Shown here in pieces: positions 2,319 through 21,372 of a stretch of 57,052 nucleotides of DNA (position 1 is the stretch's first letter; every line of letters begins with the position of its first letter). The notes under the pieces are model-generated. The model saw only the letters and a list, made by a program, of their open reading frames with translations, made no database searches and was not told where the DNA came from. The stretch lies in IMG/VR virus record IMGVR_UViG_3300028393_000031. The stretch is one strand, 5' to 3'. The translations under genes and the position numbers were made by a program. This stretch comes from an uncultured virus (IMG/VR IMGVR_UViG_3300028393_000031). Lineage: Duplodnaviria; Heunggongvirae; Uroviricota; Caudoviricetes.

Positions 2319-4232
2319 GTGGCAGTAATAAGAACATTTAAAAACGCAGTGCAAGCAGCGGCCATATTGGAAGATCCAATTCCTGGAAGTACCTACCTGT
2401 ATTTTCAAACAGATGGAGTTAATAAAACCACACTGACACCGCAGTTTGATGCACAGTATAACTTTAGTCCCAGTGGTATCTTGAGTAATGCACCAGCAAA
2501 CAGTGGACTTATAGCCGACCAACAGATAATGAATACATTTGGTACTCCTATACTAAGTGGAACAGTTAATCAACAATATAATATTAATTTTATTGAGTTT
2601 ACTGGCGTACTAGTACTCAACGGTGAAGTTACTCATTGCAGACATTTTAGTACTGCAACTAATACCTACCTCATCAATCTAGACCATGCCCCGTTCTTCT
2701 CCATGGACCCTAATTATCGCCCAAAACCAGCATCGTATTTTACAGATGGAACAAGCACAGTGGCCTATTGGGTCAAGTGGAATCAAAGTAACTCAGTTAA
2801 TACTCTCACTCAAGAAAGCACAAGATACGTGGTGCTGGTAAATGGTACCAGCGCTGGCATAGCGTCTGGGGCTACCATAGTGACTAACAGTAACTTTATT
2901 AGCACCGTGCCTAATAATAATATTACTTGTGCGCATGCCTATCCTATGTATAGAAACCCCAGCACGGGTAACATGGTATGGCATGGAATGTATACTACTA
3001 CAACATATCCTGGTGCAGGAACTGGGTTTACCTTAGGAAATGCATTTAGTCAACAAGGTACAACAATTCCTGCAACCACCAGTGGCGCCACCACTGGCGG
3101 TATTATAAATTACACAAATCAATTTGTTGGAGTAAGTGCAGTAGACGGGCTGGTGATAACATTACAGATTGGTACTACAGATGATATTAACCAACAATTT
3201 TGGAAATTCAATGATGGTGCCAATACAGCCACACAGTTAAATGCTTTTAGTGCAAGTCCTGCTGCCAGTGGCAGTAGTGTGGGCGGCAACAGAACCACTA
3301 CCCAAGGTAGTTATAAAGCCAAGTTTGCCAGCCGTTGGTTTACAGATCCGCTAACAGCAAACAGTCGTGGTTTCTATGTACCCTATGTAGACACCGCTGG
3401 CAACTACGCACCATTCTACTTTCAGTGGAATACTACAACTGACGCGTTCAGTCGTAACGCTACCAACTGTACTCTAAACTATGGTGGTAATAGTTTGAGT
3501 ACCTACTGGGCACCAGACGCTACCCAAACAGCAGCAATAAGTACTATATATGGCATGTCATCAGTTTGGTACAACGAAACATTTACTGTGGGCTCTAATC
3601 GATATATGATATTCATGCAGTTAAATGGAACTGGGGTAACTGCCGATTCGGCTCCAAAATCATGTACCTTTGTCTGCTATAGCGTAAACGCAGCGGATCC
3701 TAGGATCTTAACATATCACAGCAGCATTCCGGTACCCACAACACCAAAAAACATTGTTTGGTTGAATGATGCATTGACCATCTTGGGCGTGTTCTGTCAG
3801 AACAACTTTTACATCTACACCTTCACTGAAAGCAGTGGTTGGACTCGTACAGCAACTTTACCATTTCAATTTAGTGCAGTGGGTAGGGACAATCTGGGAC
3901 GTATCTGGGGAGTAGAGCCGGGACCATATCGTTGGGGTCGCATACACTTGATCAGTTTGACAGTACCAGTTACTATTGTGGTAACCCCAGATGCAACCAC
4001 CTACACCTATGCTGGTACACCTATCACTGGCAACTTGGCAGTTAAAGCACTGGATGCCAGCGGCAACAGGATCAGTACCACAGTCAAACTGGTTATCGAT
4101 GGCGGCAGTATGTTGTTTGGTGGTAGCAACTATACTACCACTGTCACCACCAGTGCCAGTGCAGATGTCAATGCAGCAGTTACCATATCCGGCGGAGGCG
4201 TCAGCAATATCATTGCCAGCGTGTCGGTATGA
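2319..4232 (+). CDS. Virion structural/appendage protein (paralog B of 191..2035)
   Basis: 637 aa, GTG start with SD AAGGA; full-length similarity to ORF 191. Confidence 0.7.
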   Translation: MAVIRTFKNAVQAAAILEDPIPGSTYLYFQTDGVNKTTLTPQFDAQYNFSPSGILSNAPANSGLIADQQIMNTFGTPILSGTVNQQYNINFIEFTGVLVLNGEVTHCRHFSTATNTYLINLDHAPFFSMDPNYRPKPASYFTDGTSTVAYWVKWNQSNSVNTLTQESTRYVVLVNGTSAGIASGATIVTNSNFISTVPNNNITCAHAYPMYRNPSTGNMVWHGMYTTTTYPGAGTGFTLGNAFSQQGTTIPATTSGATTGGIINYTNQFVGVSAVDGLVITLQIGTTDDINQQFWKFNDGANTATQLNAFSASPAASGSSVGGNRTTTQGSYKAKFASRWFTDPLTANSRGFYVPYVDTAGNYAPFYFQWNTTTDAFSRNATNCTLNYGGNSLSTYWAPDATQTAAISTIYGMSSVWYNETFTVGSNRYMIFMQLNGTGVTADSAPKSCTFVCYSVNAADPRILTYHSSIPVPTTPKNIVWLNDALTILGVFCQNNFYIYTFTESSGWTRTATLPFQFSAVGRDNLGRIWGVEPGPYRWGRIHLISLTVPVTIVVTPDATTYTYAGTPITGNLAVKALDASGNRISTTVKLVIDGGSMLFGGSNYTTTVTTSASADVNAAVTISGGGVSNIIASVSV

Positions 4233-4241
4233 GGACGGCCT

Positions 4242-7200
4242 GTGTCTGCAATACTATCCAGTCTTGATCTAGTAGTCAACCGCCTTACAACCATAACGGT
4301 TGTACAGAGTGGTCCTCAACTCAAAACCACACTGGCAGCAACTCCTGCCGAAACAGTTGTAAGTACCAGCAGCAATGTGGGTATACATAGGATCAACACC
4401 ACTCCGGAATTAAGCAACACAATAAGAGTGGCCTATCCCACCAGCAGTTTTGGCGGTGCCCAATTTGCAGTGGTCGACAGCGTAACCACAACTACATCGG
4501 CCAACGCCAACAGTTTTGCAGTTACTGGTGCAACATCAGTACTTGGCGGGGGATTAAATTACACGTATGGTAGCATAGTTTCAAACGTTAGTGCATATGC
4601 AACAGTAACTTATACCACCCCTGGCACTTATACTTGGACTTGCCCTGAAGGTATAACCATTATAAGTATGGTAGGCATAGGTGGTGGTGGGGGCGGCCAA
4701 CAAAAAGCTGCTGGCGGTGCTGGCGGCGCCGGAGGCTTAATTGATTACTATAATGCTTATACAGTGACGCCTGGTACCAATTATACCATTGTTGTAGGAG
4801 GCCGCGGCAGTCCAGGAACCGCGGCCGGTGATAACGGGGACGCAACTTATTTTATTGATGCCGCTGCAACTGCGCCTGTTATATATGCAGCCGGCGGCAC
4901 CGGTGGCGGCAATATGAGTTGGTTAACTGGTGGTACCGCTGGTAGTATTATTAATAGCACGTATTCTTCAATTGACACATTTACTGCACAAGACTCCAAT
5001 GGCGGAACTATAACTTACAGTGTCGCTAATGGTCCAACCGGTTTAGTAATAAATGCATCTACTGGTGTAATGTCTTATAGCCAACAATCAAGTCCCTCTC
5101 TGTCTGATGGTTACCTTATTACAATTAATGCGACATCAACTAGTGGCAGCAGTATTGATAAATTTTATACATTAATATTTACTGCTGAATCTTATTTGTA
5201 CTATCTATTAGTAGCCGGTGGTGGTGGCGCAGGCGCAGATGGCTCAGTATCTGCAGCCAGTCCGGGCACAGGAGGTGGTGGTGGTGTGGTGTTGGGATCA
5301 ATTGCAATAACATTGGGCAGCGGTTTAGTTACCATTGGTAGTGGCGGCAGCTTAGGTAGCAATGGTGGTAACACCAGTGCAATTGGCACAGCAGTATTTG
5401 GGACTAATGGTGTAGTTGCTATTGGCGGCGGCGCCGGCGGCAGTGCATTAACTGGTACCGGTGGTGGTGCAGGCGGCTCGGGCGGCGGTGGCGGGTATAG
5501 TCCCGACTTGGTTAGCGGCTCGGGCGGCGCGGGCTTACAGCCCACTAGTACGTGGGGCGGTTACGGTACCGGCGGTGCAGCTGGAAATCAAGGTGGCCTT
5601 GGTGGCAGTGCTGGTGGATCGGCTCTAAGCACATTTGCCGCAGGCAGCTTGTTGTTCAATGGTACCAGTCAGTCTCTTACATTTTCAGCACAAACTGCAC
5701 TTTCGTTTGGTACTGGAGATTTAACCATAGAGATGTGGGTGTATCCTACTACTCTTGCACCTGATGGTGGATATGCAGGGATAATAGATGCAAGATCAGG
5801 AACTGCAAGCACATCATGGACAGTTGGCTTAATTTTATCTGCAGGTAATATGTATGCTTACATGGGAATAGGAAATTCAGGAAATCCGACTGGTTCTACT
5901 ATAATTCCATTAAACGCTTGGACACATATAGCTTGGACAAGACAAAGTTCTACATTTAAAATTTTTGTTAATGGTGTTATAGACTACAATGCCAGCGAGA
6001 CTCGTGCAATTGATGCCGGAGGTACTAGTCAAACAATAGGAAGACATAACGAAGCAGGACGTTATTATCGTGGTTACCTCACTAACATTCGTATAGTAAA
6101 AGGTACCGCAGTATATACTTCTGCGTTTGCGCCAATTGTACCGTTATCTAATGTCACCAACACATCGTTACTGTTATTAGTCAACAGCGATGCTACTAAA
6201 ATAACGGATTCAAGTACTAGTCTAAAAACGCTAACCAACGTTGGTAGTGTAACTTACAGCAGTAGTGTAGTACCATCGGCATCAAACACAGCAGGTACAA
6301 CAGCATCGGGTAGCTTGGTGTTTAATGGTTCTAGTTATGTAAGTTATCCAAATAATGCTGCTTGGGCTTTTGGTGCAGGCAATTTCACTGTTGAATGTTG
6401 GTTTTATCAGACTGCTTACTCGGCTAGCGGAACTGGTAACAGTTTGGTAATGCTTTGGCATTCAGGCCCCGGTAGGGCCTTCAACTTCTATGTGAATTCT
6501 GGTGGGAGCCTCGGAGCTGGTTGGAATACATCTAACAGTACGAGTGGTGGCTCTACTAGTTTAAACACCTGGTACCATGCAGCTTTTGTTAGAAACGGTG
6601 CTAGCTTTTATCTTTATTTAAACGGCGCACAAGTTGCTACCGCTGCGGCAGCAACAATTGCAGCCAGCTCTGACCCACTGTTTATTGGCGCTAATAATGA
6701 TGCAGCAAGCCCAACCTGGTTCTTTCGTGGATACATAACCAATGTTAGAATAGTCAAAGGCACTGCCATGTATACCAGTAACTTTGCTCCAACGGTACCG
6801 TTGGCACTGGTTTCTGGTACATCACTATTGCTGACTGTTGCCAACAATACCAACAGAGCAGTTGACAGTAGCAGTAATAATTTTACCCCAACAGTCAGTG
6901 GTGCTACATTTAGCAGTACAGTAGTTCCTAGTATAGGCGCTACAGTTACCACAGCCGGCGGCAGTTTTTTGTTCAACGGCACCAACGCCACACTGACTAG
7001 CCCAATTAATGCAGCATTCAATCTTGCAGCTGATTTTACACTCGAAGCTTGGATATACTTCCAAGGTACCACCGCCGCCTGTACTATTATGGGGCATCAG
7101 GCTGGCCCAAGTCCTGGCCGCGGCTGGTTGTGGGGGTTGAGCGGTACCGGAGAACCAAATTTTGGTTGGTCTATAGCTGGAAATGGTAATATTGGTTCGG

Positions 7201-10200
7201 GTGGAACTTACTATGCCGGTGCCCTAGTTCCATTGAATCAATGGGCCCATGTGGCATTTGTAAGAAGTGGAACAACCTATAAATTTTATATAAATGGCAC
7301 TGCTGCTGGATCCGGAACCATGTCGGGTGCAGTAAGGCACGCGGGATCATTTGGCATAGGCTATACACCAAACGAAACCACAAGCGGACAGTCCTATTTC
7401 AAAGGTTACATGACCAACATCGGGATTGTCAATGGTACAGCCATGTATAATAGTTCGTTCATTCCAACTTTATTATCTGCGGTTACTAATACAACATTAT
7501 TGTTATTAGTTGCTAGCTCGGGCACATACTTAAAAGATTCCAGCGTTAATAATCTCACTGTAACCAGTGTTAATACCACTTATAACAGTACCATTGTTCC
7601 CACAGTAGTAGCTACTAGCGGGCCCATCGCAGTTAACATCCTGGGCAACGTCATTGCCAGATATTCCGACGGCGGATATGCAGCCAATAGCAGTGTTAAC
7701 TATGGTGGTGGTGGTGGCCGTGTTGGATATGGGGTTGCGGGCAATGCTGGAGTAGCTTACTTCTGGTATGCCGGGGCCAGTCGCAGTCCTAGCGGAGATT
7801 TAATTCAAAATATCTCATATGGCGGCACCAATTATTGGTTACACAAATTTGTAAACAGCCAATATCTTAATTTATACCAATTTGGTCTTAATCCACCAAC
7901 GCTGGTGGATTATATCGTTGTGGGTGGTGGAGGCGGCGGCGGCTATACACAGATCTCTAGCGGGTCGGCTGGGGGCGGTGGCGCTGGCGGTATAATAACT
8001 ACAGCGCAGTACAGTACCTACTTGAACGCTGGTGTAGTTAGTGCAACCAATAGCGCATTTGCCATGGGCACCAGTGATTTTACCGTAGAAGGTTGGGCTT
8101 GGATTGATCCTGCATGTGACGCATTGGGCGCCTTTGTGTGTAGTGTATCTAGCAGTCAGCAGGGATTTTTAGTGTATAGAGATGGTGGTGGTGGCATTTT
8201 AAATGCCAATGGTGCAGGCGGTAGTGCTGTAAGCTGGTTAACTGCTTTGCCTACCAGTACCTGGTTCCACTTTGCGCTAACTATGCAGTCAAATACCATT
8301 AGACTCTATAAAGACGGTGTTTATCAAGGTTCCACTACTAATATATATTCTAATAATTCAACCACAATAGCCTTGGGTACCAGATACACAAACAACAATT
8401 CTTGGCCATTTGTGGGATATATAACCAACGTCAGGGTAGTGAGCGGTACTGCTTTGTATACTACAACTGGCACCTTCGCAGTAGCCACTACTCCATTAAC
8501 AGCTATTTCTGGCACTGTGTACTTGACTGCTACTACTGCCACTTTACAGGACATGGGTCCAAATCGGGTTTCTGTTATTGGAACTGGAACTGTAGGTTAT
8601 AGCGCCAGTCAAATACCTTTTGCTAGTACAGCAGCATTTGCCGTAACACAGGGCACTAGTTATACAGTTACAGTAGGTGCTGGAGGTGCAGGAGGCACTA
8701 CAGGCAACGGCTCTAGCGGATCTAATAGTATTTTGGGTACCGTGGGCGGTAGTTTAAGTTTTAACGGTAGCAACAATGTAAGTGTTCCCTACAGTGCAGC
8801 AGCATTCCAAATGACTGGAGATTTTACAATAGAATGTTGGATATATCCAACTTCATACAGTGGCCCAAATGCTCATGCCAGAATGATATTTTCTAACGGT
8901 GGGCAAAGTGGTGGCGACACCGACGGATATAGTCTTCTTATCGCATCTAGCGGTCTTTTTGTTGCAACAAGGTCGGGTAGTGGAAATTATTCTTACCCCA
9001 CTGCTGGTATCGCACCGTTGAATGCTTGGAGTCATGTGGCCTATGTTCGCTCTGGCGGAAATCATAATATTTGGTTCAATGGGGTATTTAACAGCTACAC
9101 CGGCAATCAAATCACTGGTAGTATAGGAAATTCAGGTTATCCGTTTTATGTAGGTGATGAATCAGTTAACTACCGCTGGAACGATCCGTTTGTTGGATAC
9201 ATTACCAACGTTAGGGTGGTTAATGGAACTGCAATGTATACCACTGCACTGTACCCCACTGGATTTACACCAGCAGTTCCGTTGAATGTTACTAATACAA
9301 AATTATTATTAAATGTAACCACCAGTGCATTATATATAACTGATACTAGTAGTAGTCCTCTTACCCCAGTAAATAATGGTGGAGTTACATTTAGTACACT
9401 TGCTCCAGGCGGCATTGCTACTGGCGTATATGCCACAGGCGGTGGTGGAGGTGGCTATGCTGCCAACGCCTCACCGTATGCTTACGCAGGTTTATTGGGC
9501 GGATCAGGCGGCGGCGGCGCAGGTGGGACTGCGGCCGGTACTGGTGGTGCAGCCATGGCTGGCCAAGGATTTGCAGGTGCAGCTGGCTCTAGTACTTCGA
9601 CAGCATTTGGTGGCGGTGGTGGGGGAGGAGGAGGAGGTGCAGGATTGGCGGGATCGGCCAGTGCTGGTGGTGCAGGAGGTGTAGGAGCCATAACGCCATT
9701 GATTACCACTACGCAGGCCAATACTGCGGTAATTGGACAAGTTGTAACTGGTAATGTTTATTTTGGTGGCGGTGGTGGCGGTGGTGTATATGCTAGCACC
9801 GCCATTGGTGCCGGCGGAGTGGGCGGCGGTGCAAGTGGTGGCAGCGCGATAGTATCTGGTGCTGTAAGTTTTGCTGGTGCTGGACAATATTTAAAAATTG
9901 CTTCCACCTATGACGCTGCATGGTCATTCCCTGGAGATTTTACTATGGAGGCATGGGTATACTGGCCAGGTACAGTACCCACCGACGCCGGGCAGTACAC
10001 AATTATGAGTGACATGGAAACTGCTGAAAATCGGCAATGGGAATTCCAGTACTATAACAATTTTTGGCGCCTGGCTGCGTATGGGTCATCAACAAATTCT
10101 CCCAGTATATCGGCCTGGTCGATAGCTGGAAATAATACAGCAGGATCGGGAAAAATTGTAGGCAATACCTGGTACCATATAGCAGTGACAAGATCTGGCA

Positions 10201-10799
10201 CCACTGGAAAAATGTGGGTAAATGGCGTAGATGTTACTGCCAGTGATAGTATAGGCAGCAGCGACTTGACTTCTGCTAACAACGCCACCAGTGGGCATTC
10301 GGCACTGTATATTGGACAGTCGGGCATAAGTTCAACCTGGCGTTGGACCGGATATATCACCAACGTGCGTATAACCAAAGGACAGTCATTATACAATACT
10401 GCATTTACCCCAGCTGCGCCTCTGTCGGCTGGAGCCAATACTACAGTGTTATTATTGTTTAATACAGATCTTACTAAATTAGTTGATTCGAGTACAAATG
10501 CTTTTCCAGTAGTCAACAACGGCAGCGTAACCTGGTCAAATTCAACTTTACCATCCGGTAGTGGCGGCCTAATAGCCAATGGCGCCGCCGGAACTGTCAA
10601 CACCGGTGGTGGCGGTGGTGGTGCAGGAGCTAAATCCGGCGGCGGAGGTGCAGGGGGCGCAGGTGGTGCAGGTGTAGTCGTCATCCGTTACCCAGATGCA
10701 TATAACATTGCAGCAAGTACTACAGGTAGCCCAATATTGGAAACTGCCAATGGATATAGGACATACATATTCAAGACTTCTGGCTCGATCACATTCTAA
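4242..10799 (+). CDS. Giant fibre/adhesin: glycine-rich domains, an Ig-like domain and six LamG/ConA-like modules
   Basis: 2185 aa, GTG start with GAGG SD. Six repeats of the S(L/V)xFNG...DFTxExW...W(T/Y)H(I/V)A...GY(I/L)TN(I/V)R pattern. Gly-rich motifs TTPGTYTWT, YIVVGGGGGG and GVVVIRYP. Confidence 0.85.
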   Translation: MSAILSSLDLVVNRLTTITVVQSGPQLKTTLAATPAETVVSTSSNVGIHRINTTPELSNTIRVAYPTSSFGGAQFAVVDSVTTTTSANANSFAVTGATSVLGGGLNYTYGSIVSNVSAYATVTYTTPGTYTWTCPEGITIISMVGIGGGGGGQQKAAGGAGGAGGLIDYYNAYTVTPGTNYTIVVGGRGSPGTAAGDNGDATYFIDAAATAPVIYAAGGTGGGNMSWLTGGTAGSIINSTYSSIDTFTAQDSNGGTITYSVANGPTGLVINASTGVMSYSQQSSPSLSDGYLITINATSTSGSSIDKFYTLIFTAESYLYYLLVAGGGGAGADGSVSAASPGTGGGGGVVLGSIAITLGSGLVTIGSGGSLGSNGGNTSAIGTAVFGTNGVVAIGGGAGGSALTGTGGGAGGSGGGGGYSPDLVSGSGGAGLQPTSTWGGYGTGGAAGNQGGLGGSAGGSALSTFAAGSLLFNGTSQSLTFSAQTALSFGTGDLTIEMWVYPTTLAPDGGYAGIIDARSGTASTSWTVGLILSAGNMYAYMGIGNSGNPTGSTIIPLNAWTHIAWTRQSSTFKIFVNGVIDYNASETRAIDAGGTSQTIGRHNEAGRYYRGYLTNIRIVKGTAVYTSAFAPIVPLSNVTNTSLLLLVNSDATKITDSSTSLKTLTNVGSVTYSSSVVPSASNTAGTTASGSLVFNGSSYVSYPNNAAWAFGAGNFTVECWFYQTAYSASGTGNSLVMLWHSGPGRAFNFYVNSGGSLGAGWNTSNSTSGGSTSLNTWYHAAFVRNGASFYLYLNGAQVATAAAATIAASSDPLFIGANNDAASPTWFFRGYITNVRIVKGTAMYTSNFAPTVPLALVSGTSLLLTVANNTNRAVDSSSNNFTPTVSGATFSSTVVPSIGATVTTAGGSFLFNGTNATLTSPINAAFNLAADFTLEAWIYFQGTTAACTIMGHQAGPSPGRGWLWGLSGTGEPNFGWSIAGNGNIGSGGTYYAGALVPLNQWAHVAFVRSGTTYKFYINGTAAGSGTMSGAVRHAGSFGIGYTPNETTSGQSYFKGYMTNIGIVNGTAMYNSSFIPTLLSAVTNTTLLLLVASSGTYLKDSSVNNLTVTSVNTTYNSTIVPTVVATSGPIAVNILGNVIARYSDGGYAANSSVNYGGGGGRVGYGVAGNAGVAYFWYAGASRSPSGDLIQNISYGGTNYWLHKFVNSQYLNLYQFGLNPPTLVDYIVVGGGGGGGYTQISSGSAGGGGAGGIITTAQYSTYLNAGVVSATNSAFAMGTSDFTVEGWAWIDPACDALGAFVCSVSSSQQGFLVYRDGGGGILNANGAGGSAVSWLTALPTSTWFHFALTMQSNTIRLYKDGVYQGSTTNIYSNNSTTIALGTRYTNNNSWPFVGYITNVRVVSGTALYTTTGTFAVATTPLTAISGTVYLTATTATLQDMGPNRVSVIGTGTVGYSASQIPFASTAAFAVTQGTSYTVTVGAGGAGGTTGNGSSGSNSILGTVGGSLSFNGSNNVSVPYSAAAFQMTGDFTIECWIYPTSYSGPNAHARMIFSNGGQSGGDTDGYSLLIASSGLFVATRSGSGNYSYPTAGIAPLNAWSHVAYVRSGGNHNIWFNGVFNSYTGNQITGSIGNSGYPFYVGDESVNYRWNDPFVGYITNVRVVNGTAMYTTALYPTGFTPAVPLNVTNTKLLLNVTTSALYITDTSSSPLTPVNNGGVTFSTLAPGGIATGVYATGGGGGGYAANASPYAYAGLLGGSGGGGAGGTAAGTGGAAMAGQGFAGAAGSSTSTAFGGGGGGGGGGAGLAGSASAGGAGGVGAITPLITTTQANTAVIGQVVTGNVYFGGGGGGGVYASTAIGAGGVGGGASGGSAIVSGAVSFAGAGQYLKIASTYDAAWSFPGDFTMEAWVYWPGTVPTDAGQYTIMSDMETAENRQWEFQYYNNFWRLAAYGSSTNSPSISAWSIAGNNTAGSGKIVGNTWYHIAVTRSGTTGKMWVNGVDVTASDSIGSSDLTSANNATSGHSALYIGQSGISSTWRWTGYITNVRITKGQSLYNTAFTPAAPLSAGANTTVLLLFNTDLTKLVDSSTNAFPVVNNGSVTWSNSTLPSGSGGLIANGAAGTVNTGGGGGGAGAKSGGGGAGGAGGAGVVVIRYPDAYNIAASTTGSPILETANGYRTYIFKTSGSITF

Positions 10800-10811: not shown

Positions 10812-13800
10812 ATGACAATAAGTAGCTCGTTTCTATCAAACGTCACAGTTGAAACACTGGTAGTGGCCGGTGGCGGTGGCGGAGGAACTAACTATAACCT
10901 GCGTGGTGCAGGTGGCGGAGCAGGGGGATTAGTCTACATTGGTAATCTACAAATACCTGCAGGAACCACCGCCAATGTTGTAGTTGGCAGTGGCGGATTG
11001 GTCAGTGCCAGAGGCGGCGACAGTGCCATATTACCTTATGTGCCCACCTACAGCCATTGGTTTAATGGTTATAGCACTTACGACTATTTAACAGTTACAA
11101 ATACAGCATATCCGTTCAGTCTGGGTGGTGACTTTACTGTCGAAGCCTGGATCTATCTTAATGCTTATGGATCTACCTACACTAGTATTGTTGATACCAG
11201 GACTGGTGCGGTGGCTCAAACTTGGAACTTTGGTGTTTACGGCACCGGCTTGGATTTTTATTGGGGCGCAAGTAGGGCGACCAGCAGCATGCGAGTTCCA
11301 AGTGGACAGTGGACACATGTCGCAGCTACTCGACAAAGCGGTAATGTATATCTCTACGTAAATGGATATCGTGATGCTATCTCGGTTACTGGTGTTACTA
11401 CCTGGATGCAGCAAACGAGCACGACAGTTTGGATTGGTAATAACAGAGATGGTGCAGCCACCGGGCAAAACACATACTCGGCTAATGTCTATATTTCAAA
11501 TCTACGGACTGTATCGGGTATTGCTGTCTACACCGGCAACTTTACACCGCAAACTACAAATTTATCTACCACACAGTCCAGTGGTGCCAACATTGCTGCT
11601 ATTTCTTCATCGCCAACGGTAGCAAACACAGGGGTATTCAACGGAACAACTAGTTATCTTCTACACACTTATGCAGGCAACGGGCCCATGGATTTAGCCA
11701 CAGGACAACCCAGCTGGACTGTAGAATGTTGGTTCTATTGTACTAATTATGCTGCCAAGCAAACTGCCATATTTGATGCAAGTGGTCGAGTAGGTGTTGC
11801 TAATTCGGCGTTGGCGTTTTGGTTAAGTGCAACCGGAGTAGGCGCCTGGATCATAGGCAACGGTGGCGGCGGCTATATAGCCTATGTACCCACCATGGCT
11901 ACTACATTTACACTTGGCACCTGGTATCATGTTGCAATGGTACGCAACACCAGCACAGGTCGAGCTCAAGTATATGTCAATGGGGTATTAGATGCAAATT
12001 CCAATATTGTTACCAGTGGTAGCATGGCCAACGCCTATAGTTTGGACTTTTCAATAGGCAGTGATATCGCCACACAGCTGGCGGGAGCTTCATTATTTTA
12101 TGGATATATAAGTAATTTACGAGCAGTTAAAGGTGTTGCTGTATATACCGGCAATTTTACTGTGCCATCAATACCACTGACAGTTACACAAAGTTCTAGC
12201 GGTAACATAGCGGCTATCTCTGGTTCACAAACCAGTTTATTGATACTACAAGGAACACCTATAGCGGATGCAAGTTTAAATTCTATATCTATAACTAATT
12301 CTGCAGTGACAATGACTCAGTTAGTGGTTGGAATTGGTACTACATTTTTAAGTTTGCAAAATTCAACTCTAATAGATAACAGCATAGCTAATTCACCAAT
12401 CGTAAAATACTATGGTAGTGTGAGTCCCAGCATATTTTCACAGAGTACACCAGTGACTGATGGATACGCCAGCGTCTACTTCAATGGTGCAACCCTGTTG
12501 CAGTACACCAACTCAACAGCACTGACTACAATAGCTGCTGTTGATGTTAGTGCGAATCAATTTACCGTGACCAGTACAGCATCAATACCAAACGTGATTG
12601 CAACAGCACCTGCAATTACACCTTTGGGCACTGTAAACAGTATTAGTTTTGCTGGTAGCCAATATTTAACGGTAACAGCAAACGCCGCCTTTGCATATGG
12701 CACTGGTAGTTTTACTGTTGAGTGTTGGGTTTATATAACTACAGCTTTGGCTGCTGGTGCGTTTGTTGGCCCATGGACTGGTACCGCAGCAACCAGCTCT
12801 TGGGTTTTTACACAAGGCAGTCCTACTGCTACTAATTTAAGATTTGGTGTTTCAGATGGAACAACAGCAACATTTTATCAAGGCGGTGGAGGATTATCCA
12901 TAAACACATGGATACATGTAGCTGCGGTTAGAAATGGTACTACACTGACATTGTATTCTAATGGAACATCAGTATCCACAAACGCTGGTATTTCTACAAA
13001 CATATCAGTGGCATCACAGGCACTACAAATTAACGGTGTCGCAGGAGCAACTTTTTTAACAACTGGTTACATATCCAATCTACGTATAGTCAAAGGTGTA
13101 GCAGTCTACACCGGCAATTTCACAGTACCCACTGCCCCATTAACAATTACCCAAAGTTCTAGCGGCGCAAATATTGCAGCCATCACAGGCTCACAAACCA
13201 GCCTGTTACTGCAACCTGTTGCTGGATGGACAGCAGAATGTTGGGTTAACCCATCTGGCGACTATAGTACTTATAGGACCGTATTTGCCAAACGTGTAAA
13301 TGCCACAGTCACCACCGAATATGAGGGTTACCTGCGATTGACCAGTGGTGTTATCAGTTTCTATAACGGAACCAATTACGAAAGCACAACAACATTAACT
13401 GCCAACACCTGGAGCCACTGTGCCTGGGTTTACACTGGAACCAATATTGTTATCTATGTAAACGGGACGCAAGTATACACAAGCGCAGTCACTATCACCA
13501 CCAATACTGAACCCATGATTATTGGCGGTGTTAGGACCGGTAGTGAATATTTTCTTGGCTTCTTGAGTAATTTCCGTTTTACTAGAGGAATTGTATATAC
13601 CGGCGCATTTACCCCACCCACTACACCACTGCGAGCTACTCAAACTGTGTCAGGCAACATTGCTGCCATTACTGGCAATGCCAGCAGCAGTACCAGCTTG
13701 TTGGTATTACAGAGCAGTACCTATAAAGACAACAGTGTGAACAATTACTTATATGGTTACAGCTATACTATCTACACCGGTACACCCATAATCAAAACCG

Positions 13801-15368
13801 ATGTTGCACCGTTTGTTGATCCTGTGCGCGGTATTGTTGCTTATGGTGGTGGTGCAGGTGCATTTAATAATACAACAAACAATGCCAATACAGGCGGGTC
13901 AGGTGGCGGCAGCTGGTATCCTGGTTACGTTGGCGCCCCAGCAAGCCAACCCCCCACTAGCTATTATGCTGGCATTGCTTATACTAATACTGGCTTTGGC
14001 AATACAGGCGGACTAGGTGGTGGAGTGCAGCCATATGGCGGCGGCGGTGGCGGCGCCGGCGGCGTTGGATCTGGATACACAGACATATATGCTGGAGGTG
14101 GTGGAATAGGTCGCCAATACACAATAAGTGGCGTACCTGCATACTATGCAGGCGGCGGTAGCAGTGCAGCATACCCACTCGAAGCTGGATACTTAATAAA
14201 TGCCGGTGGCCTAGGAGGTGGTGGACAGGGCGACAACAGTGTATGGGCAGCAACACAAGTTACAGGTTACACAGGCAGCACTGGTACTGTTAACGCAACT
14301 GCCAATGGCTCGCCATATACCGGCGGCGGCGGTGGCTCGGGTGGTTGGGGTGGTTCGGGCATAGTCATCATGCGCTATCTAGGCACACAAATAGCCACCG
14401 GCGGTACAGTAACATCAATCGGCGGATATACCATACACACATTTACCACAGCAGGAACATTTACTATAGCTGCTAATATTTCAGTTGGCAGCGCAGGCGG
14501 CAACGGTGGACCTTACGCCGGCGGAGGTGGTGGCGCAGCAGGTTACCTGGGCTTTGGCGGCAACGGTGCAGCAGGGGCCAGCCTAGCAGCTGGCAGCTAC
14601 GGCATCGGCGGCGGTGGGGGAGGTGGTGGCTCCAGTGCAACATTTGGCGGAGGTGGCGGCGGAGTGGACATTTGGGGCCTAGGTGGATATTCTGGTGCAG
14701 GAGGCACAGCAGGTCAACCCGGCACTGGTGGTAGTCCAGAAGTTACGCTTGGCCTGACTGGCAATGGCGCACAGCCTGGATTTGGCAGCAATGGCGGACT
14801 CTACGGTGGCGGAGGTGGCGGCGGCGTTACTAGTTCATTGGATACCTCACGTGGATGGGGAGCAAATGGTGCATTTGCACTGGTATATTCAACTACATCT
14901 AGCACCTATACATATCCATACATCAGTCCAATCAATTTGGTGTACCTTGGCAATCTACAATCTACAAATACAACCCAGTTTACTTCAAATGTGTCAGGTG
15001 TGATAACGGACTCGAACTTTGATCAAAACGTAATTGGGAACCTGGCATACAGCCAAACCAGCGTAAACATGCCAGTCGCATACGAGTCACAGTATACCAA
15101 TAATACTGTTTCTGTATACAGAACCGCATCATTAGCAGCCAATAATGTCATAGCCAGCGACATCACAGTGACCGTCAACTATCAAGCCGAGTGGATGCTG
15201 CGTAATAGCGATCCTGCTTTTCCGGCCACATATGATAAGCCGTTTAATTATCAAACTGCTCAACCAGTGACTACTACCAATGATCCACGTAAGCTAACAT
15301 TGAAAGCCAGCTTTATTACCAAAACTGGTACTCAACAAGATCCCACTGAGCCGGATCAGTACCTATAA
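10812..15368 (+). CDS. Giant fibre/adhesin: glycine-rich domains with four LamG/ConA-like modules
   Basis: 1518 aa with four LamG cores (FTVEAW, WTVECW, FTVECW, WTAECW). C-terminus similar to that of ORF 15385 (NSD...NYQTxQPVT..NDPR...LK). Confidence 0.85.
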   Translation: MTISSSFLSNVTVETLVVAGGGGGGTNYNLRGAGGGAGGLVYIGNLQIPAGTTANVVVGSGGLVSARGGDSAILPYVPTYSHWFNGYSTYDYLTVTNTAYPFSLGGDFTVEAWIYLNAYGSTYTSIVDTRTGAVAQTWNFGVYGTGLDFYWGASRATSSMRVPSGQWTHVAATRQSGNVYLYVNGYRDAISVTGVTTWMQQTSTTVWIGNNRDGAATGQNTYSANVYISNLRTVSGIAVYTGNFTPQTTNLSTTQSSGANIAAISSSPTVANTGVFNGTTSYLLHTYAGNGPMDLATGQPSWTVECWFYCTNYAAKQTAIFDASGRVGVANSALAFWLSATGVGAWIIGNGGGGYIAYVPTMATTFTLGTWYHVAMVRNTSTGRAQVYVNGVLDANSNIVTSGSMANAYSLDFSIGSDIATQLAGASLFYGYISNLRAVKGVAVYTGNFTVPSIPLTVTQSSSGNIAAISGSQTSLLILQGTPIADASLNSISITNSAVTMTQLVVGIGTTFLSLQNSTLIDNSIANSPIVKYYGSVSPSIFSQSTPVTDGYASVYFNGATLLQYTNSTALTTIAAVDVSANQFTVTSTASIPNVIATAPAITPLGTVNSISFAGSQYLTVTANAAFAYGTGSFTVECWVYITTALAAGAFVGPWTGTAATSSWVFTQGSPTATNLRFGVSDGTTATFYQGGGGLSINTWIHVAAVRNGTTLTLYSNGTSVSTNAGISTNISVASQALQINGVAGATFLTTGYISNLRIVKGVAVYTGNFTVPTAPLTITQSSSGANIAAITGSQTSLLLQPVAGWTAECWVNPSGDYSTYRTVFAKRVNATVTTEYEGYLRLTSGVISFYNGTNYESTTTLTANTWSHCAWVYTGTNIVIYVNGTQVYTSAVTITTNTEPMIIGGVRTGSEYFLGFLSNFRFTRGIVYTGAFTPPTTPLRATQTVSGNIAAITGNASSSTSLLVLQSSTYKDNSVNNYLYGYSYTIYTGTPIIKTDVAPFVDPVRGIVAYGGGAGAFNNTTNNANTGGSGGGSWYPGYVGAPASQPPTSYYAGIAYTNTGFGNTGGLGGGVQPYGGGGGGAGGVGSGYTDIYAGGGGIGRQYTISGVPAYYAGGGSSAAYPLEAGYLINAGGLGGGGQGDNSVWAATQVTGYTGSTGTVNATANGSPYTGGGGGSGGWGGSGIVIMRYLGTQIATGGTVTSIGGYTIHTFTTAGTFTIAANISVGSAGGNGGPYAGGGGGAAGYLGFGGNGAAGASLAAGSYGIGGGGGGGGSSATFGGGGGGVDIWGLGGYSGAGGTAGQPGTGGSPEVTLGLTGNGAQPGFGSNGGLYGGGGGGGVTSSLDTSRGWGANGAFALVYSTTSSTYTYPYISPINLVYLGNLQSTNTTQFTSNVSGVITDSNFDQNVIGNLAYSQTSVNMPVAYESQYTNNTVSVYRTASLAANNVIASDITVTVNYQAEWMLRNSDPAFPATYDKPFNYQTAQPVTTTNDPRKLTLKASFITKTGTQQDPTEPDQYL
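13076..13159 (+). repeat. 84-bp near-perfect direct repeat, copy 1 (copy 2 at 16341-16424)
   Basis: caatctacgtatagtcaaaggtg(t/c)agcagtctacaccggc...acccaaagttc; one mismatch in 84 nt by manual alignment. Confidence 0.9.
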
Positions 15369-15384: not shown

Positions 15385-17967
15385 ATGTCATTTAGCCAAA
15401 TAACTGCCGTAGATCTAGTAGTAAATCAAATAGTTACTATAGTCACCAAGTACAGCCCGTCATCACCTGCAGGCGTTAATACCACGGGAGACGTCGTTCC
15501 TACTGAAACCATAGTACGTACCAGCAGCAATGTGGGCTTGAATCAGATCAACACCAGGCGGGAGTTGTCCAACACGGTACAGGTCTACAATCCACTGTAT
15601 TCATTTGGCAATCAGACATTTAACTACTCAAATAGTCCGTTGCCGGATATTAAAAGTCAATTGAGTATAACTCAACCGATTGATCTGGGTAATCGCCCGT
15701 TTGGTTTTAATATAATTGGCAATGCTACACCGGTTGTGGATACTGGGGCATCGTATGGTCAGCAACCTTTCTTAATTTATAACACATTGCCTACGGTCTC
15801 TTCACTTGATCCAGTATTGGAATTGACCAACAACAATGTTGGTGGCCTGGCTGTTATTGGAAGCCTTCGGGGGTATGGTAGTATATTGTTTAATGGTACT
15901 AGCCAATATTTAACAGTGGCTGCAAATGCCGCATTTGATTTTAGTACTGGTGATTTCACCATGGAATGTTGGATATACACAACAAGTTTGGCTGCTACTC
16001 AACAAACAATTGATCTCTTTAGCAATGCAGCTGGATCATATATCGTTGGACAATGCCAACTTCAATTGTTAACTACCGGAGCGGTTGCTTTTGCTTATGC
16101 CACCTCCACCTCCGCTGCTACCTTTTTTGGCACAGCAGCATCGGCAGTGACCATAAACTCTTGGTATCATATTGCTGTGGTTCGGTCAGGCTCTGCCGTT
16201 GGAAACTTAAAAATTTATGTAAACGGCGTGCTTGCAGCAACCAGCGCAGGAGCATTGACCCAAGCCTTTGGTACCACTGGATCAATGTCCGTTGGTAGAC
16301 AAACAAATAATACTAGTAACTTCTTTTCTGGTTATATTAGCAATCTACGTATAGTCAAAGGTGCAGCAGTCTACACCGGCAATTTCACAGTACCCACTGC
16401 CCCATTAACAATTACCCAAAGTTCCGGCACAAACATCTCGGCCATTACAGGCTCACAAACTAGTTTGTTATTGAATACCCCATTTAATGCAGCTGCCCTC
16501 AATGATACCTCATCGTTTGGGTTCACATTAACAAATACAGGTACAGCAACATCTAGTTCTATAAATCCATTTCCGCCAGGTAGCGTACTGCTGAACGGTA
16601 CTACTCAATCACTCACAGCAAACACAGCAGCCACCTGGACCTACCTACACAATGGATTGCAGGACTATACAATAGAATGTTGGTATCGTAGTAGCTCTAC
16701 TGTATATCAAAATCTATTAGGCACCAGTGGCACGACTGCATCCATTGGCTTTGAGTTGTCAATAAACAACCCCACAGTGGGAGCAGTGACAGTGGTTTAC
16801 ACTAGGGGTGTGTCAACTAATAACACATGGACTTATGCGAACAGTGCTGTTGCAACCAATGCCTGGTACCATGTGGCAACAACTTTTGCCAGTAGTACAA
16901 AACGATCAAACATTTATGTAAATGGTAACTTGGCAGGTACTGCTGCTAATGTGGCGTTTGCTTATAGCGCATCAGCACCCACAAACACATTGGGCATTGG
17001 GTTTACCACTGGCACTGGGCAATTCAACGGTTACATGACCAGTGTGCGTATAACTAAATCTATCGTATATACTGCAAACTTTACACCAGCAGTTCCGCTG
17101 ACCAGTATCAGTAGCACACAATTATTATTACAGTTCAATTCCAGTGGTGCTTTGTTGACTGATTCTGGCCCCAATAACAATACCATTACCAACGTTGGTG
17201 CAGCAACATTTTCTACAGTTGCGCCAACTGTGGCCAATGTGGCCACAGTGAACAATTACTACAACTACTCACAATTGTATTTTAACGGTGGGTTGAATAT
17301 ACCCTACGGAGATATTACATCAAACGTATTAGCGTCTAGCAGCCCAGTTAATACCTATACCAATCCCAGTGGTGCAATGTTGAATGCAAACGCCAGTATA
17401 CTGACCACCGGCACTGTTGATAGGGTTGGCCGTTTTGACCAAAGTAATGTTACTGTAATTTCTGTTAATCTACAGCCAGGTTCGGTGGCAACACAGGCTG
17501 GCTCACAGGTGTTGTTAGCAGATCTATCGCAGGATATCCAGTCTAATCACATCAGCGGTTACCTTGCCCTTGGGGCACCATTCCTCTATTATGATTTAGT
17601 GTCGACGCCCGCTACGTATAACACAGCCAATTATTCTGCACCTGCGCTAGTAAACCAAACTATAAATTTTGATCTAGGTCAAAAAAACATATCATCACAA
17701 CGCTACTTTGTGCCCAACGGTGCCTCTGTGAATTCGGTAACAAATAACCGGTCGCCGCAGCAGACTATCATTGTAAATGCACAGCCCGAATTTATGCTGG
17801 TCAATTCGGATCGGAACTTTGTAGCTAGTAATGTTAATCCAACCAATTATCAAACTATACAACCTGTCACGCCCGACAATGATCCGCGTTTGGCCAGCTT
17901 AAAGGTAGGATTTGCAGTCAAAGGTCAAACTGGAACTAACCCGTATAATCCACAAAACATCTATTAG
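15385..17967 (+). CDS. Fibre/adhesin protein with two LamG/ConA-like modules
   Basis: 860 aa with two LamG cores. N-terminus similar to that of ORF 4242; C-terminus similar to that of ORF 10812. Confidence 0.85.
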   Translation: MSFSQITAVDLVVNQIVTIVTKYSPSSPAGVNTTGDVVPTETIVRTSSNVGLNQINTRRELSNTVQVYNPLYSFGNQTFNYSNSPLPDIKSQLSITQPIDLGNRPFGFNIIGNATPVVDTGASYGQQPFLIYNTLPTVSSLDPVLELTNNNVGGLAVIGSLRGYGSILFNGTSQYLTVAANAAFDFSTGDFTMECWIYTTSLAATQQTIDLFSNAAGSYIVGQCQLQLLTTGAVAFAYATSTSAATFFGTAASAVTINSWYHIAVVRSGSAVGNLKIYVNGVLAATSAGALTQAFGTTGSMSVGRQTNNTSNFFSGYISNLRIVKGAAVYTGNFTVPTAPLTITQSSGTNISAITGSQTSLLLNTPFNAAALNDTSSFGFTLTNTGTATSSSINPFPPGSVLLNGTTQSLTANTAATWTYLHNGLQDYTIECWYRSSSTVYQNLLGTSGTTASIGFELSINNPTVGAVTVVYTRGVSTNNTWTYANSAVATNAWYHVATTFASSTKRSNIYVNGNLAGTAANVAFAYSASAPTNTLGIGFTTGTGQFNGYMTSVRITKSIVYTANFTPAVPLTSISSTQLLLQFNSSGALLTDSGPNNNTITNVGAATFSTVAPTVANVATVNNYYNYSQLYFNGGLNIPYGDITSNVLASSSPVNTYTNPSGAMLNANASILTTGTVDRVGRFDQSNVTVISVNLQPGSVATQAGSQVLLADLSQDIQSNHISGYLALGAPFLYYDLVSTPATYNTANYSAPALVNQTINFDLGQKNISSQRYFVPNGASVNSVTNNRSPQQTIIVNAQPEFMLVNSDRNFVASNVNPTNYQTIQPVTPDNDPRLASLKVGFAVKGQTGTNPYNPQNIY
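16341..16424 (+). repeat. 84-bp near-perfect direct repeat, copy 2
   Basis: Matches 13076-13159 at 83 of 84 positions. Confidence 0.9.
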
Positions 17968-18009: not shown

Positions 18010-21000
18010 ATGAAAATTGCTATTATCGACATCATCGGCCTACCATACGATGGAACTACTGTGTTTAAACAGGGACTTGGTGGATCCGAAAGTGCTGTAA
18101 CTTTTATGGCACGAGAACTGGCACAAATTGGATTCGATGTCACAGTATTCAATAATTGTAATATAGATCAAGCACAAGCCGGTGTGTATGATTTAGTTAC
18201 TTACTGTCCGCTTACCGATCTAGCCTCAGAACATTCATTTGATATTGTTATCAGTAGCAGGACAGTAATTCCTTTTGTAGATGCAATTGACTACCACAAA
18301 TTGCAAGATAATAGAGCATTTGCATTACAACCATATAATCTATACGACAGAATTATAGCTCAAGCAAAGATGCGCATATTGTGGATGCACGATACTTTTT
18401 GTTTAGGTGATAATTTAATAGAAGAATTAGCAGTTGCCGATCGTATCACAGATATATTCACACTTAGTGATTTTCACCTTACCTATGTGGCCAATTGCAA
18501 TCACGGGCGCAGAAGGAACTTTGAAGTATTAAAGCGTAAAATGTTTATTACCAGGAATGGCGCTAATTGCTATGTACCCGAAGTAGATATCGCTGCTAAA
18601 GATCGAAACTTATTTGTTTATAATGCCAGTGTAACTAAAGGTATGATACCTTTGGTGAATGAAATTTGGCCTAGAGTTAAATCACAAATTCCAGATGCTC
18701 GATTAAAAATAATTGGTGGCTACTATAGATTTAGTTCAGCATCAGAACCAGACGCACAAGAACAAGACTGGCGACGAATGGTTGCTGATCCCAAGTATAC
18801 CAATTGGGGAATAGAATTTCTAGGAGTGATACCACAACAACAAATTGGATCAATACTAGCGCAATCAAACTTTATGATATACCCTTGCGCATTTCCAGAA
18901 ACGTTTGGTATATCTATATTAGAAAGTCTACTGTACAATACTCCGGTTATTACTTGTAGATTTGGTGCAGCAGAAGAAGTAGCACTAGAAGGTGCCAGCT
19001 ACTTGATTGATTATCCAATTGAGCCTAATAGTTTATTTCCTGATGTTAATACAGCACAGCAAATTGATCAATTTGTAGCAATGACTGTGCGAGCCTATAA
19101 TGATACATATTTGCATCAACAAAAACAATATTATTGTAACATTGTAAAACCATTGGCTGGATGGGATACAGTAGCTTTGCAATGGAAACAGCTCTTCTTT
19201 CATCGATCCGGCAAGTACTTGTCGAGACAACAATATCAACAGATAACAAAAATAAATCGACAAGTTCATAAAGTTTGGCAGCGTAGATATCATAACGTAG
19301 TTGAACTAGAACACCATAAAACTGGAGCAGAGCAAGAAATAATTATTGTAAGCACGTTTTATAATTGTCATGATTATATAGCACGTTGTATTGAAAGTGT
19401 AGCTGCACAAGATTATGATAACTATCAACATATTTTAATTGATGATAAATCAACCGATAATACGGTTGAGGTTGTGCTTGCTACTTTAGATACATTACCT
19501 GAATACTTACGCAACCGTTTTGTTATAGTATCAAATAAAGAACGCTTAGGTGCAGTATATAATCAAGTTGCATCTATTAGAGAAATAGAGAATCCTAATG
19601 CTATAGTAATGATACTTGACGGCGACGATAGTCTAGTCAACGATAACACCATATTCAATTATTATAACGCCATATACGACGGCACTACTGAATTTACATA
19701 TGGTTCATGTTGGAGTATGGTCGATAACATACCATTGATTAGTCAACCATATCCAGAGTCTGTTAAACAAGCCAAATCATATAGACAACATCATTTTAAT
19801 TGGATATTGCCGTATACACATTTACGAACATTTAGGAAATATCTCATTGAAGACATTCCAGACAGCAATTTCCAAGATAGTACCGGTAAATGGTTCAAGG
19901 CCGGTGGCGATGGATCTACTTTTTATAGTCTAATAGAAGCAGCAGATCCTGCACAAGTAAAATGTTTACAACAAATAGTTTATAATTATAATGATGCCAA
20001 TCCATTAAATGATTATAAAGTGAATAGTAAGGAACAAACAGCCGCGGCACAGGCTATTATTAATAAACAAACAAAACCTGTTGTGGCGCCCGATACAAAG
20101 AAATATTCTATTGTAGTGCCCACCATGTGGAGATTAAAAGATCAATTTGTTTCTTTTATTAATCAGTTGTGTTTGCATCCTGCTGTAGATGAGATTATTA
20201 TTATTGATAATGATAATACACAAACACCTCAATTGTCTCATGAAAAAATAAAAATAAAAGATTTTGGCAAAAACATTTATGTTAATCCTGCTTGGAATCT
20301 TGGAGTAGTGGTTAGTCGTAATAATCGTATATGCATTCTCAATGATGATGTAATGTTTGATCTTGGCTTATTTGAAAAATTACAAGATCTGATTACTCCA
20401 GAATCTGGGGTGTTTGGATTGTGCCCGGGCGTATCAGATTTTAATCAGCCGCCGTACATTAATGGCGCCATAGATGTTATTCCGTGGACTACGCAACACA
20501 CCTACGGATTTGGTTGTTTGATGTTTATACATAAAGATTCATGGCAACCAATTCCAGAGGGATTAAAAATATATTATGGCGATAATTATATATTTGATTT
20601 ACAATTAAGTCGTAATAAAACTAATTATCTAATAACAAATGTAATGTTCCACACGCCATTTGCTGTCACTACGTCTGATACTAGCATCACTGATGGGTTT
20701 CTAGATAAAGAGACTATAGAGTATCAGCAAGTCAATCCGTTAACAAATAAAAATATTATGCCTATTCCAAATAAGAAAAAAATTCTAATAGCTATACCAA
20801 CAGCCAAATATATAGAGCCAGAGACATTTAAAAGCATCTATGATTTAATTGTGCCTGATGATTGCGAAGTAACATTCCAATACTTTTTTGGATATCGCGT
20901 GGATCAAGTACGTAATTTAATAGCAGACTGGGTAGTTAACGGATTTGATTATTTGTTTAGTGTTGATAGTGATATATCGTTTGAAAGAGATACATTACAA

Positions 21001-21372
21001 AAATTATTAGCACATGATAAAGATATGGTCTCTGGATTGTATATACAACGTGTCCCTGGCACACAAATAGTGGAAATTTACGAACACAATCAATTTGGTG
21101 GCGTTGTAAACATTCCATATGATAGATTAAAAAACCGAGGATTAGTGAGTATTGCCAGTTGTGGTTTTGGCTGTGTCTTGGTTAAGAAACGAGTATTTCA
21201 ACATGTCGGATATCCGCAATTTGAATATCATCCGGCCATTAGTCACAGTAACACAATATCTGAAGATGTTGATTTTTGTAAAAAAGCATTAGCTAAAGGA
21301 TTCGGCATCTTTGCTGATACTTCTATTTTATGTAATCATATTGGTAATTACAATTTTGAAATTAAACAATGA
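18010..21372 (+). CDS. Multidomain glycosyltransferase (GT4-like plus three GT2/GT-A-like domains)
   Basis: N-terminal GT-B domain (GLGGSE, LWMHD, FPETFGISILE). Three GT-A domains follow: IIIVSTFYN..IDDKSTD..LDGDD, YSIVVPTM..IIIDND..LNDD, and ILIAIPT..FSVDSD..GFGCVLV..SEDVDFC. Confidence 0.88.
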   Translation: MKIAIIDIIGLPYDGTTVFKQGLGGSESAVTFMARELAQIGFDVTVFNNCNIDQAQAGVYDLVTYCPLTDLASEHSFDIVISSRTVIPFVDAIDYHKLQDNRAFALQPYNLYDRIIAQAKMRILWMHDTFCLGDNLIEELAVADRITDIFTLSDFHLTYVANCNHGRRRNFEVLKRKMFITRNGANCYVPEVDIAAKDRNLFVYNASVTKGMIPLVNEIWPRVKSQIPDARLKIIGGYYRFSSASEPDAQEQDWRRMVADPKYTNWGIEFLGVIPQQQIGSILAQSNFMIYPCAFPETFGISILESLLYNTPVITCRFGAAEEVALEGASYLIDYPIEPNSLFPDVNTAQQIDQFVAMTVRAYNDTYLHQQKQYYCNIVKPLAGWDTVALQWKQLFFHRSGKYLSRQQYQQITKINRQVHKVWQRRYHNVVELEHHKTGAEQEIIIVSTFYNCHDYIARCIESVAAQDYDNYQHILIDDKSTDNTVEVVLATLDTLPEYLRNRFVIVSNKERLGAVYNQVASIREIENPNAIVMILDGDDSLVNDNTIFNYYNAIYDGTTEFTYGSCWSMVDNIPLISQPYPESVKQAKSYRQHHFNWILPYTHLRTFRKYLIEDIPDSNFQDSTGKWFKAGGDGSTFYSLIEAADPAQVKCLQQIVYNYNDANPLNDYKVNSKEQTAAAQAIINKQTKPVVAPDTKKYSIVVPTMWRLKDQFVSFINQLCLHPAVDEIIIIDNDNTQTPQLSHEKIKIKDFGKNIYVNPAWNLGVVVSRNNRICILNDDVMFDLGLFEKLQDLITPESGVFGLCPGVSDFNQPPYINGAIDVIPWTTQHTYGFGCLMFIHKDSWQPIPEGLKIYYGDNYIFDLQLSRNKTNYLITNVMFHTPFAVTTSDTSITDGFLDKETIEYQQVNPLTNKNIMPIPNKKKILIAIPTAKYIEPETFKSIYDLIVPDDCEVTFQYFFGYRVDQVRNLIADWVVNGFDYLFSVDSDISFERDTLQKLLAHDKDMVSGLYIQRVPGTQIVEIYEHNQFGGVVNIPYDRLKNRGLVSIASCGFGCVLVKKRVFQHVGYPQFEYHPAISHSNTISEDVDFCKKALAKGFGIFADTSILCNHIGNYNFEIKQ

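Follow-up and report, generated by a model that had tools for sequence, protein, structure and literature searches.

Gene B of an uncultured T4-like phage encodes a complete LamG module that sits inside a loop of another LamG module, and the chain order of the inserted module is tail-first. The DNA analysed here is a stretch of 57,052 nucleotides (the window, IMG/VR record IMGVR_UViG_3300028393_000031). Profiles trained without gene B confirm that a LamG is interrupted and resumes beyond a complete inserted module. The architecture is real, is conserved among the orthologues of gene B, and has counterparts in tail-first inserts of other phage proteins.

The window comes from a large T4-like phage of fresh water. 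A terminase, a tail sheath, gp15, gp32 and a RecA-like gene were found among the 20 open reading frames scanned, related records are 199-260 kb long, and the sequencing runs that contain window DNA carry the labels freshwater, lake water or unspecified metagenome. Three adjoining genes, A (4242-10799), B and C (15385-17967), carry six, four and two LamG modules respectively, and all of these are head-first except the nested insert of gene B. Gene B (Table 1) matches Laminin_G_3 (PF13385) over four stretches with 210.6 bits (cut-off 27.6), which places it in that family. Its product is probably a virion fibre or adhesin. The gene is absent from the record nearest to the window, a 15-kb fragment.

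Table 1 Features of gene B and of the first LamG of gene C, with positions in the window
Feature	Position	Strand	Description
Gene B	10812..15368	+	1518 aa, Gly-rich and LamG; four LamG modules as two nested pairs (from Laminin_G_3, profile parse and orthologue clusters)
First nested pair	11052..12445	+	B1 at ~11052-11600 with its tail at 12336-12445; B2 inserted head-first before the LL strand of B1
Host LamG head, first two strands	12468..12530	+	aa 553-573; 73-100% identical among 8 orthologues
Insert, first part	12531..12629	+	tail-type segment (D-x-S-x-N-x-F type) and linker; left breakpoint uncertain by ~5 codons
CTGTTG, left copy	12538..12543	+	kept in L001/L086; not in L010, L011, L087
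Insert, rest	12630..13214	+	head, variable core (~12660-13065), conserved end to the LL strand
Host LamG remainder	13215..13820	+	core, LL strand and own tail; 81-94% identical among 8 orthologues
CTGTTG, right copy	13216..13221	+	altered in all 5 related loci with DNA
First LamG of gene C (C1)	15868..16572	+	core 80% identical to the insert core of orthologue P0006

An ordinary LamG module consists of a head of two strands, a core, an LL strand and a tail, in that order. In gene B a complete LamG lies between the head and the core (aa ~802-1000) of the host. This inner LamG starts with the usual module tail and stops at the strand found just before the tail in ordinary modules. The best non-orthologue matches of the leading segment of the insert are ordinary tails. 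Based on a profile of the eight LamG modules of genes A and C, aa 609-801 correspond to model positions 3-182 and aa 805-978 to positions 28-197, i.e., a headless host; the match of aa 559-593 to the tail of this profile is weak (-2.3 bits). A larger profile of 575 modules, from which 14 gene-B records were left out, gives the order head (model 9-21, residues 547-559), tail (188-198, residues 577-587), full core (13-181, residues 607-800 from head to LL strand) and host core (41-194, from residue 806). When the insert is rotated by script, its best single-domain score rises from 163.2 to 175.5 bits and its cover of the model extends from 8-181 to 8-202. Closing the host in the same way raises its score from 136.2 to 148.6 bits, with the head now covered. 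Because rotation and closing each gain ~12 bits, the insert aligns fully only once permuted and the head and tail pieces are complementary, which answers the preliminary description's question of a permuted or colinear alignment in favour of the former. Thus, complementary host pieces flank a complete inserted domain (an A1-B-A2 insertion), and the insert is circularly permuted at the protein level relative to the family profile rather than to a donor. Uninterrupted homologues of the host exist as colinear modules that are 45-64% identical to the host core, for example in L080, P0080 and P0017.

A structure prediction of aa ~550-1000 had also been proposed. The AlphaFold model of the nested region (pLDDT 80.7, pTM 0.71) was built from an alignment of 60 rows, 56 of which are hand-chosen two-module stretches from ordinary arrays. 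A first fold from 9 alignment rows (pLDDT 43) was discarded, and one alignment (A6), in which host-type rows were placed on the insert, was not folded. Given as first and last residues only, model residues ~1-453 (head and host) superpose on solved single LamG/pentraxin domains (e.g., 4dqa, Z 20.9, rmsd 2.4, 189 aligned) and residues 22-229 (insert with the leading tail segment) superpose on 5hon_A (Z 19.3, rmsd 2.6, 186 aligned). The fold is a jelly roll (Z up to 21, rmsd 2.4-3.7, ~190 aligned). Since solved domains of ~200 residues span model residues ~1-453, the head would have to sit in the host domain of the model. The superpositions fit the nesting and support, rather than prove, the folding of the host pieces as one domain: the host head has few alignment rows and a pLDDT of 53-59, and the leading tail segment (model residues 31-40) has one of 82. 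Solved LamG-like domains with the tail segment in front also exist.

Eight orthologue clusters cover both ends of the insert and all eight are nested, none showing one junction alone; a ninth cluster, cut at its start, has the right junction. At least nine gene-B protein clusters, 81-100% identical to the host core, are among the matches listed. Both junctions vary by small indels among alleles. We take the insertion to predate the split of the gene-B phage clade, so the junction bases have had time to change.

The core of the insert is swapped like a cartridge between conserved flanks. Among the eight orthologues it falls into five classes that are 28-39% identical to one another, whereas the host is far more constant (Table 1); the 3' end of the insert is 67-98% identical. 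A variable domain is thus projected from a constant host, as in split domains. At the DNA level, the identity of the insert core to L011 drops to 36-55%. Compared with a LamG encoded by a different gene of the L001 phage, the insert core of orthologue P0005 reaches 0.94 of its self-score; the 199-kb record of that phage has 26 LamG matches. C1 and the 3' end of the gene B insert have 97 nt in common at 95%. A contig of run X7 joins 12521 to 13092 with 588 other letters between, i.e., a replaced cassette, and a contig of run X1 joins 12530 to 13089 and skips that stretch.

Two small features of the host head were observed. About 50 bp (12478-12526) are identical in four aligned alleles, with flanks that are 60-85% alike. 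Inside this invariant stretch, just left of the cassette crossover zone, lies a 6-bp inverted repeat (12488-12502).

The preliminary description explained the architecture by a single-domain DNA circle that integrated at a 6-bp microhomology, CTGTTG. Both copies are present, in frame and 678 bp (226 codons) apart. For junction zones of 27 and 21 nt, chance alone yields an in-frame repeat of at least 6 nt in 10% of 4602 random zone pairs and in 17% of 5000 synonymous recodings. In the closest relative the right copy carries a silent change, and each of the 5 related loci, which represent three distinct alleles, has a longest in-frame repeat of 3-5 nt at other positions. The repeat is therefore at chance level and unconserved, and its proposed role as the integration site is not supported. 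Joining the insert ends does give the normal module order, as described, but the join leaves a loop of four residues between LL strand and tail. In ordinary modules (380 of 575 measurable), the spacing from the LL strand to the tail aspartate is 8 residues in 243, 5-7 in four and 4 in none. The CTGTTG breakpoint pair ranks 41-49 of 140, 6-7 bits under the best, and the best-scoring pairs imply an insert of 229-230 aa rather than 226. At the other insertions of the window the longest in-frame junction repeats are 5-6 nt; at 17 tail-first inserts they are mostly 3-5 nt, and reach 6 nt or more in 2 of 17, which is chance level. No shared junction repeat or signal above chance was found in either group. 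We conclude that the CTGTTG repeat is unable to carry the mechanism. Similar dipeptides occur at both junctions in several alleles, and an older, eroded junction repeat is possible.

Searches for the predicted intermediates were made in several collections. An empty host allele, lacking the 678 bp, was found neither in 9 viral loci, 19 metagenome loci and the best 120 of 153 protein matches, nor in 3 loci with the head motif or the contigs of 4 runs. A search by tail for a donor with contiguous insert ends yielded only 4 orthologues among 49 candidates, and a profile search yielded 3 matches, one an orthologue and two unrelated repeat proteins. Four related phage records contained weak ordinary tails only, and a DNA pattern search returned 3 orthologous loci and 1 unrelated locus. 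Circle-junction sequences, also suggested as a check, did not occur in the assembled contigs of 4 of the 24 listed runs; runs sharing few words with the window were left out as evidence. As neither an empty host allele nor a donor was found, we infer the direction of the insertion and its route.

Whole-module insertion is routine in gene-B phages. Loci L077, L079 and L087 are without B2 and have one or two LamGs in the head loop of B1, which is empty in the window. This polymorphism is reciprocal between window positions 11052-12445 and L077:5625-10148 and L087. Orthologue P0010 has an extra head-first LamG (aa 600-816) in its C-terminal Gly-rich region that the window is without. In gene A, LamG modules (the array A1-3, A4, A5 and A6) break Gly-rich domains at four places, all head-first; the gene A product is 2185 aa long in the window and 1353-1787 aa in orthologues, so module number varies.

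To place the insert among other LamG proteins, we scanned 274 partly redundant proteins (1168 cores). Out of 38 complementary parses, 29 are head-first, 7 tail-first and 2 doubtful; the 7 tail-first parses all come from the gene-B clade, the scan having missed RCC1-family cases. The filter for nested LamGs under-counts (gene B itself was dropped) and gave 1 false match in 13. In giant RCC1/LamG phage proteins (RCC1 by Pfam), tail-first is the standard insert form. By our reading of the parse of L021, L027 and L056/L060, the 28 LamG units start tail-first in 26 cases, LL-first in 1 and unclearly in 1, a count that is not independent because most of L021 is orthologous to L027. Two head-first inserts occur in L046. 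Tail-first inserts occupy RCC1 loops and three different loops inside other LamGs, i.e., four or more unrelated host sites, and one interrupted LamG host in the RCC1 family has uninterrupted paralogues in the same protein. The leading segment of the gene B insert is no closer to the tail-first segments of the RCC1 family than to ordinary tails, in a noisy comparison with several mis-cut segments, and the import of a ready-made module thus receives no support from it. No RCC1 match was found in 4 LamG-bearing records (G002-G005), three of them incomplete.

The RCC1-repeat proteins (L021:1510-11307, L027:3-12230, L056 and L060) are 3200 to over 5000 aa long in these loci, and L056 and L060 are overlapping parts of one contig and apparently of one longer gene. 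Another locus, L055, has a 4554-aa frame (from position 3 onward) that encodes a deeply nested LamG protein ending in consecutive LL/tail units, which suggests several nesting levels.

We somewhat favour, as the origin of the nested pair, a single ancient event in which a permissive loop took up an entire tail-first module in frame and at both ends, and after which the core was exchanged. The clade ancestor would have captured the complete module in one in-frame step, in the loop that follows the first two strands of the host LamG. The likeliest route would be two-ended illegitimate recombination, or a template switch, copying a unit with defined ends, whether a tail-first module already present somewhere or a single period from a tandem array. 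The chain ends of these LamG modules cluster at one pole, and the fold can be opened at three loops close to its termini, so that three orders (head-first, LL-strand-first and tail-first) occur and whole modules fit into loops; the insert would have been retained by selection because both domains fold. Since then, the host and the ends of the insert have remained constant and the core has been exchanged, probably by homologous recombination in the conserved flanking motifs, with replacement cores drawn from other LamG genes. As in T4 biology, the recombination proteins of the phage would drive both capture and exchange. The host would then be a split domain that projects a variable and, to judge from its fold, probably glycan-binding domain. 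Weighing against the capture, among 817 modules the head scores of the 30 closest relatives of the host core are not higher overall (p = 0.16), so that the tie between host head and core is loose at the sequence level.

Module order follows gene family, as expected if end-defined units are copied, whereas fresh circles should mix the orders. Therefore, we rank capture first, a circle second, deletions third and a shuffling activity last. A one-module DNA circle, excised from a tandem LamG array by recombination between adjacent modules, opened between LL strand and tail and integrated by a single crossover at a microhomology, is rather unlikely, and it is unproven and less likely than linear capture. 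It would need a single illegitimate junction, tandem arrays able to shed circles are common, the length of the insert is very nearly one period and its two ends fall within a single short loop, as a circle would automatically give, and the similar junction dipeptides could reflect an eroded repeat. The circle retains weight because the insert is odd in its family, one period long and untied to the RCC1-family modules. Against it stand the chance level and lack of conservation of CTGTTG, the implied loop length and breakpoint rank, the lack of a donor in the searches, and the lack of circle joints or empty joints in the contigs searched, which drop rare variants. One opening is found in all 8 clusters with both ends, and the same donor DNA opened at different points was not found among them; module order clusters by gene family where a mix of permissive loops is expected. 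As the tail-first order recurs at several unrelated sites, random opening of each circle is disfavoured. The circle mechanism of the preliminary description is thus not borne out by the repeat, the searches or the pattern of orders elsewhere.

Two complementary deletions in an array X-Y-Z could also yield the nested order, if X lost its core, so that its head came to abut its tail, and Y's tail and Z's head were lost, with folding selecting the product. No insertion machinery is needed for this, arrays are abundant, and head and host core are without a significant sequence link across the 817 modules. We nevertheless consider it unlikely: it requires a pair of deletions whose ends match and passes through a misfolded form, no one-junction relative occurs among the 8 clusters with both ends, and the leading segment of the insert is unlike the host's own tail. 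True insertions with empty alleles occur in gene B and L021, and the host head resembles the heads of P0080 and P0086, two of the closest relatives of the host core, which rank 2 and 9 by head score among the 817 modules. One-step insertion is the more economical explanation.

A dedicated module-shuffling activity, of unspecified type, that moves LamG-coding cassettes with defined ends to new sites is improbable. Many independent in-frame insertions of whole modules at non-homologous sites, with family-specific ends, would be accounted for in this way, but the ends differ by several codons, the junctions have no common repeat or motif, and no integrase or transposase was found among the 20 window reading frames scanned. 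Finally, an assembly artefact between similar LamG repeats in this repetitive region, where several strains occur together in run X1, can be regarded as refuted, given that unitigs 12468-13129 and 13130-13478 of X1 (which may be the source sample) span both junctions without differences and that independently assembled contigs and the 8 orthologue clusters agree.

The preliminary description regarded a 9.5-kb block of the window as a first case of circle integration. This reading fares poorly, the left junction of the block recurring in distant relatives. At this junction a Gly-rich half runs into an Ig-like unit that begins at its natural start, and the flanks of the block have only a 5-nt in-frame match in common. 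All 3 loci that cover the left end of the block contain it, as do those loci, out of 6, that extend to the right end, and its empty form was not seen in the loci examined. The start of gene A (4242-4600) is similar to the start of gene C, and the end of gene B (15000-15368) to its end, which gives A and B the look of a single C-like gene that the block has interrupted.

A broader proposal is that large freshwater T4-like phages mobilise single LamG modules as DNA circles or end-defined cassettes, without a transposase, and insert them in frame into loops of LamG, RCC1 and Gly-rich domains. We regard this as doubtful. If true, it would be a mobile element system at the level of domains, which builds branched adhesins and generates circular permutants in one step, and the insert of gene B would be a circle opened in the loop between LL strand and tail.

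Precedents exist for domain insertion, for permuted inserts and for lectin-projecting split domains, and gene B is a real, conserved and unusual variant of domain insertion. The published description of the RTX adhesin AhLap of Aeromonas hydrophila includes split domains, beta-sandwiches that are broken near the first strand(s) and project a lectin-like, ligand-binding domain, with nesting that can run several levels deep (PMC12077191). The gene B host is likewise a beta-sandwich broken near its first strands that projects another domain. The AhLap host is Ig-like and part of a bacterial T1SS adhesin (PMC12077191), whereas host and insert of gene B are both LamG in a phage product; in addition, the gene B insert is circularly permuted and its core exchanged among alleles, and its ligand binding is a prediction from the fold. 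According to the text of a survey of domain insertions, these occur in 20% of multidomain proteins, inserted domains can be circularly permuted, and 65.8% of the insertions surveyed join different homology groups (PMC13114784). Unlike that majority, the LamG family inserts into itself, repeatedly and in three chain orders. The main text of the survey lacks the term 'concanavalin', and its supplements may list such cases (PMC13114784).

As reported for a 17-kb Zygosaccharomyces bailii segment of wine yeasts, a permuted order of inserted DNA argues for a circular intermediate (PMC5499181), and the circle argument for gene B is of the same kind. The yeast segment has one known donor (over 99.7% identical) in several permutations (PMC5499181). 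In contrast, the gene B clade has one permutation, the same order is found across many insertions, and a donor was not found.

Laminin_G_3 proteins of uncultured Caudovirales and T4-like cyanophages have the same fold and gene type as gene B. For the best viral fold match, A0A6J5T0F1 (84% identity), the annotation reads simply concanavalin A-like lectin/glucanase and mentions neither nesting nor a permuted order or swappable core. T-even adhesins exchange variable receptor-binding segments between conserved Gly-rich motifs, whereas gene B exchanges a whole LamG core within a nested domain. Permutation by duplication creates new termini from tandem repeats. Judged by search listings, no nested or permuted LamG modules in phages are reported in the open-access literature searched.

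From its fold, gene position and pattern of variability, gene B would encode a variable adhesin on a constant split domain. The constant host and swappable core point to the part of the protein that probably governs binding to the host cell in this uncultured group of phages. The case reveals loops of the LamG fold that accept whole-domain inserts, and a single family that is self-inserted in three chain orders is a rare natural test bed for the origins of domain insertion and permutation. For several sites, closely related phages include both filled and empty alleles, so the route is testable.

Other genes flank the LamG genes. Upstream of gene A are two paralogous reading frames of ~620 aa each (191-2035 and 2319-4232) without a Pfam match. 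Directly after the LamG genes, 18010-22058 encodes a 1120-aa multi-domain glycosyltransferase (GT1 and GT2 families) and what we take, by resemblance, to be a probable methyltransferase; the two may modify the fibres.
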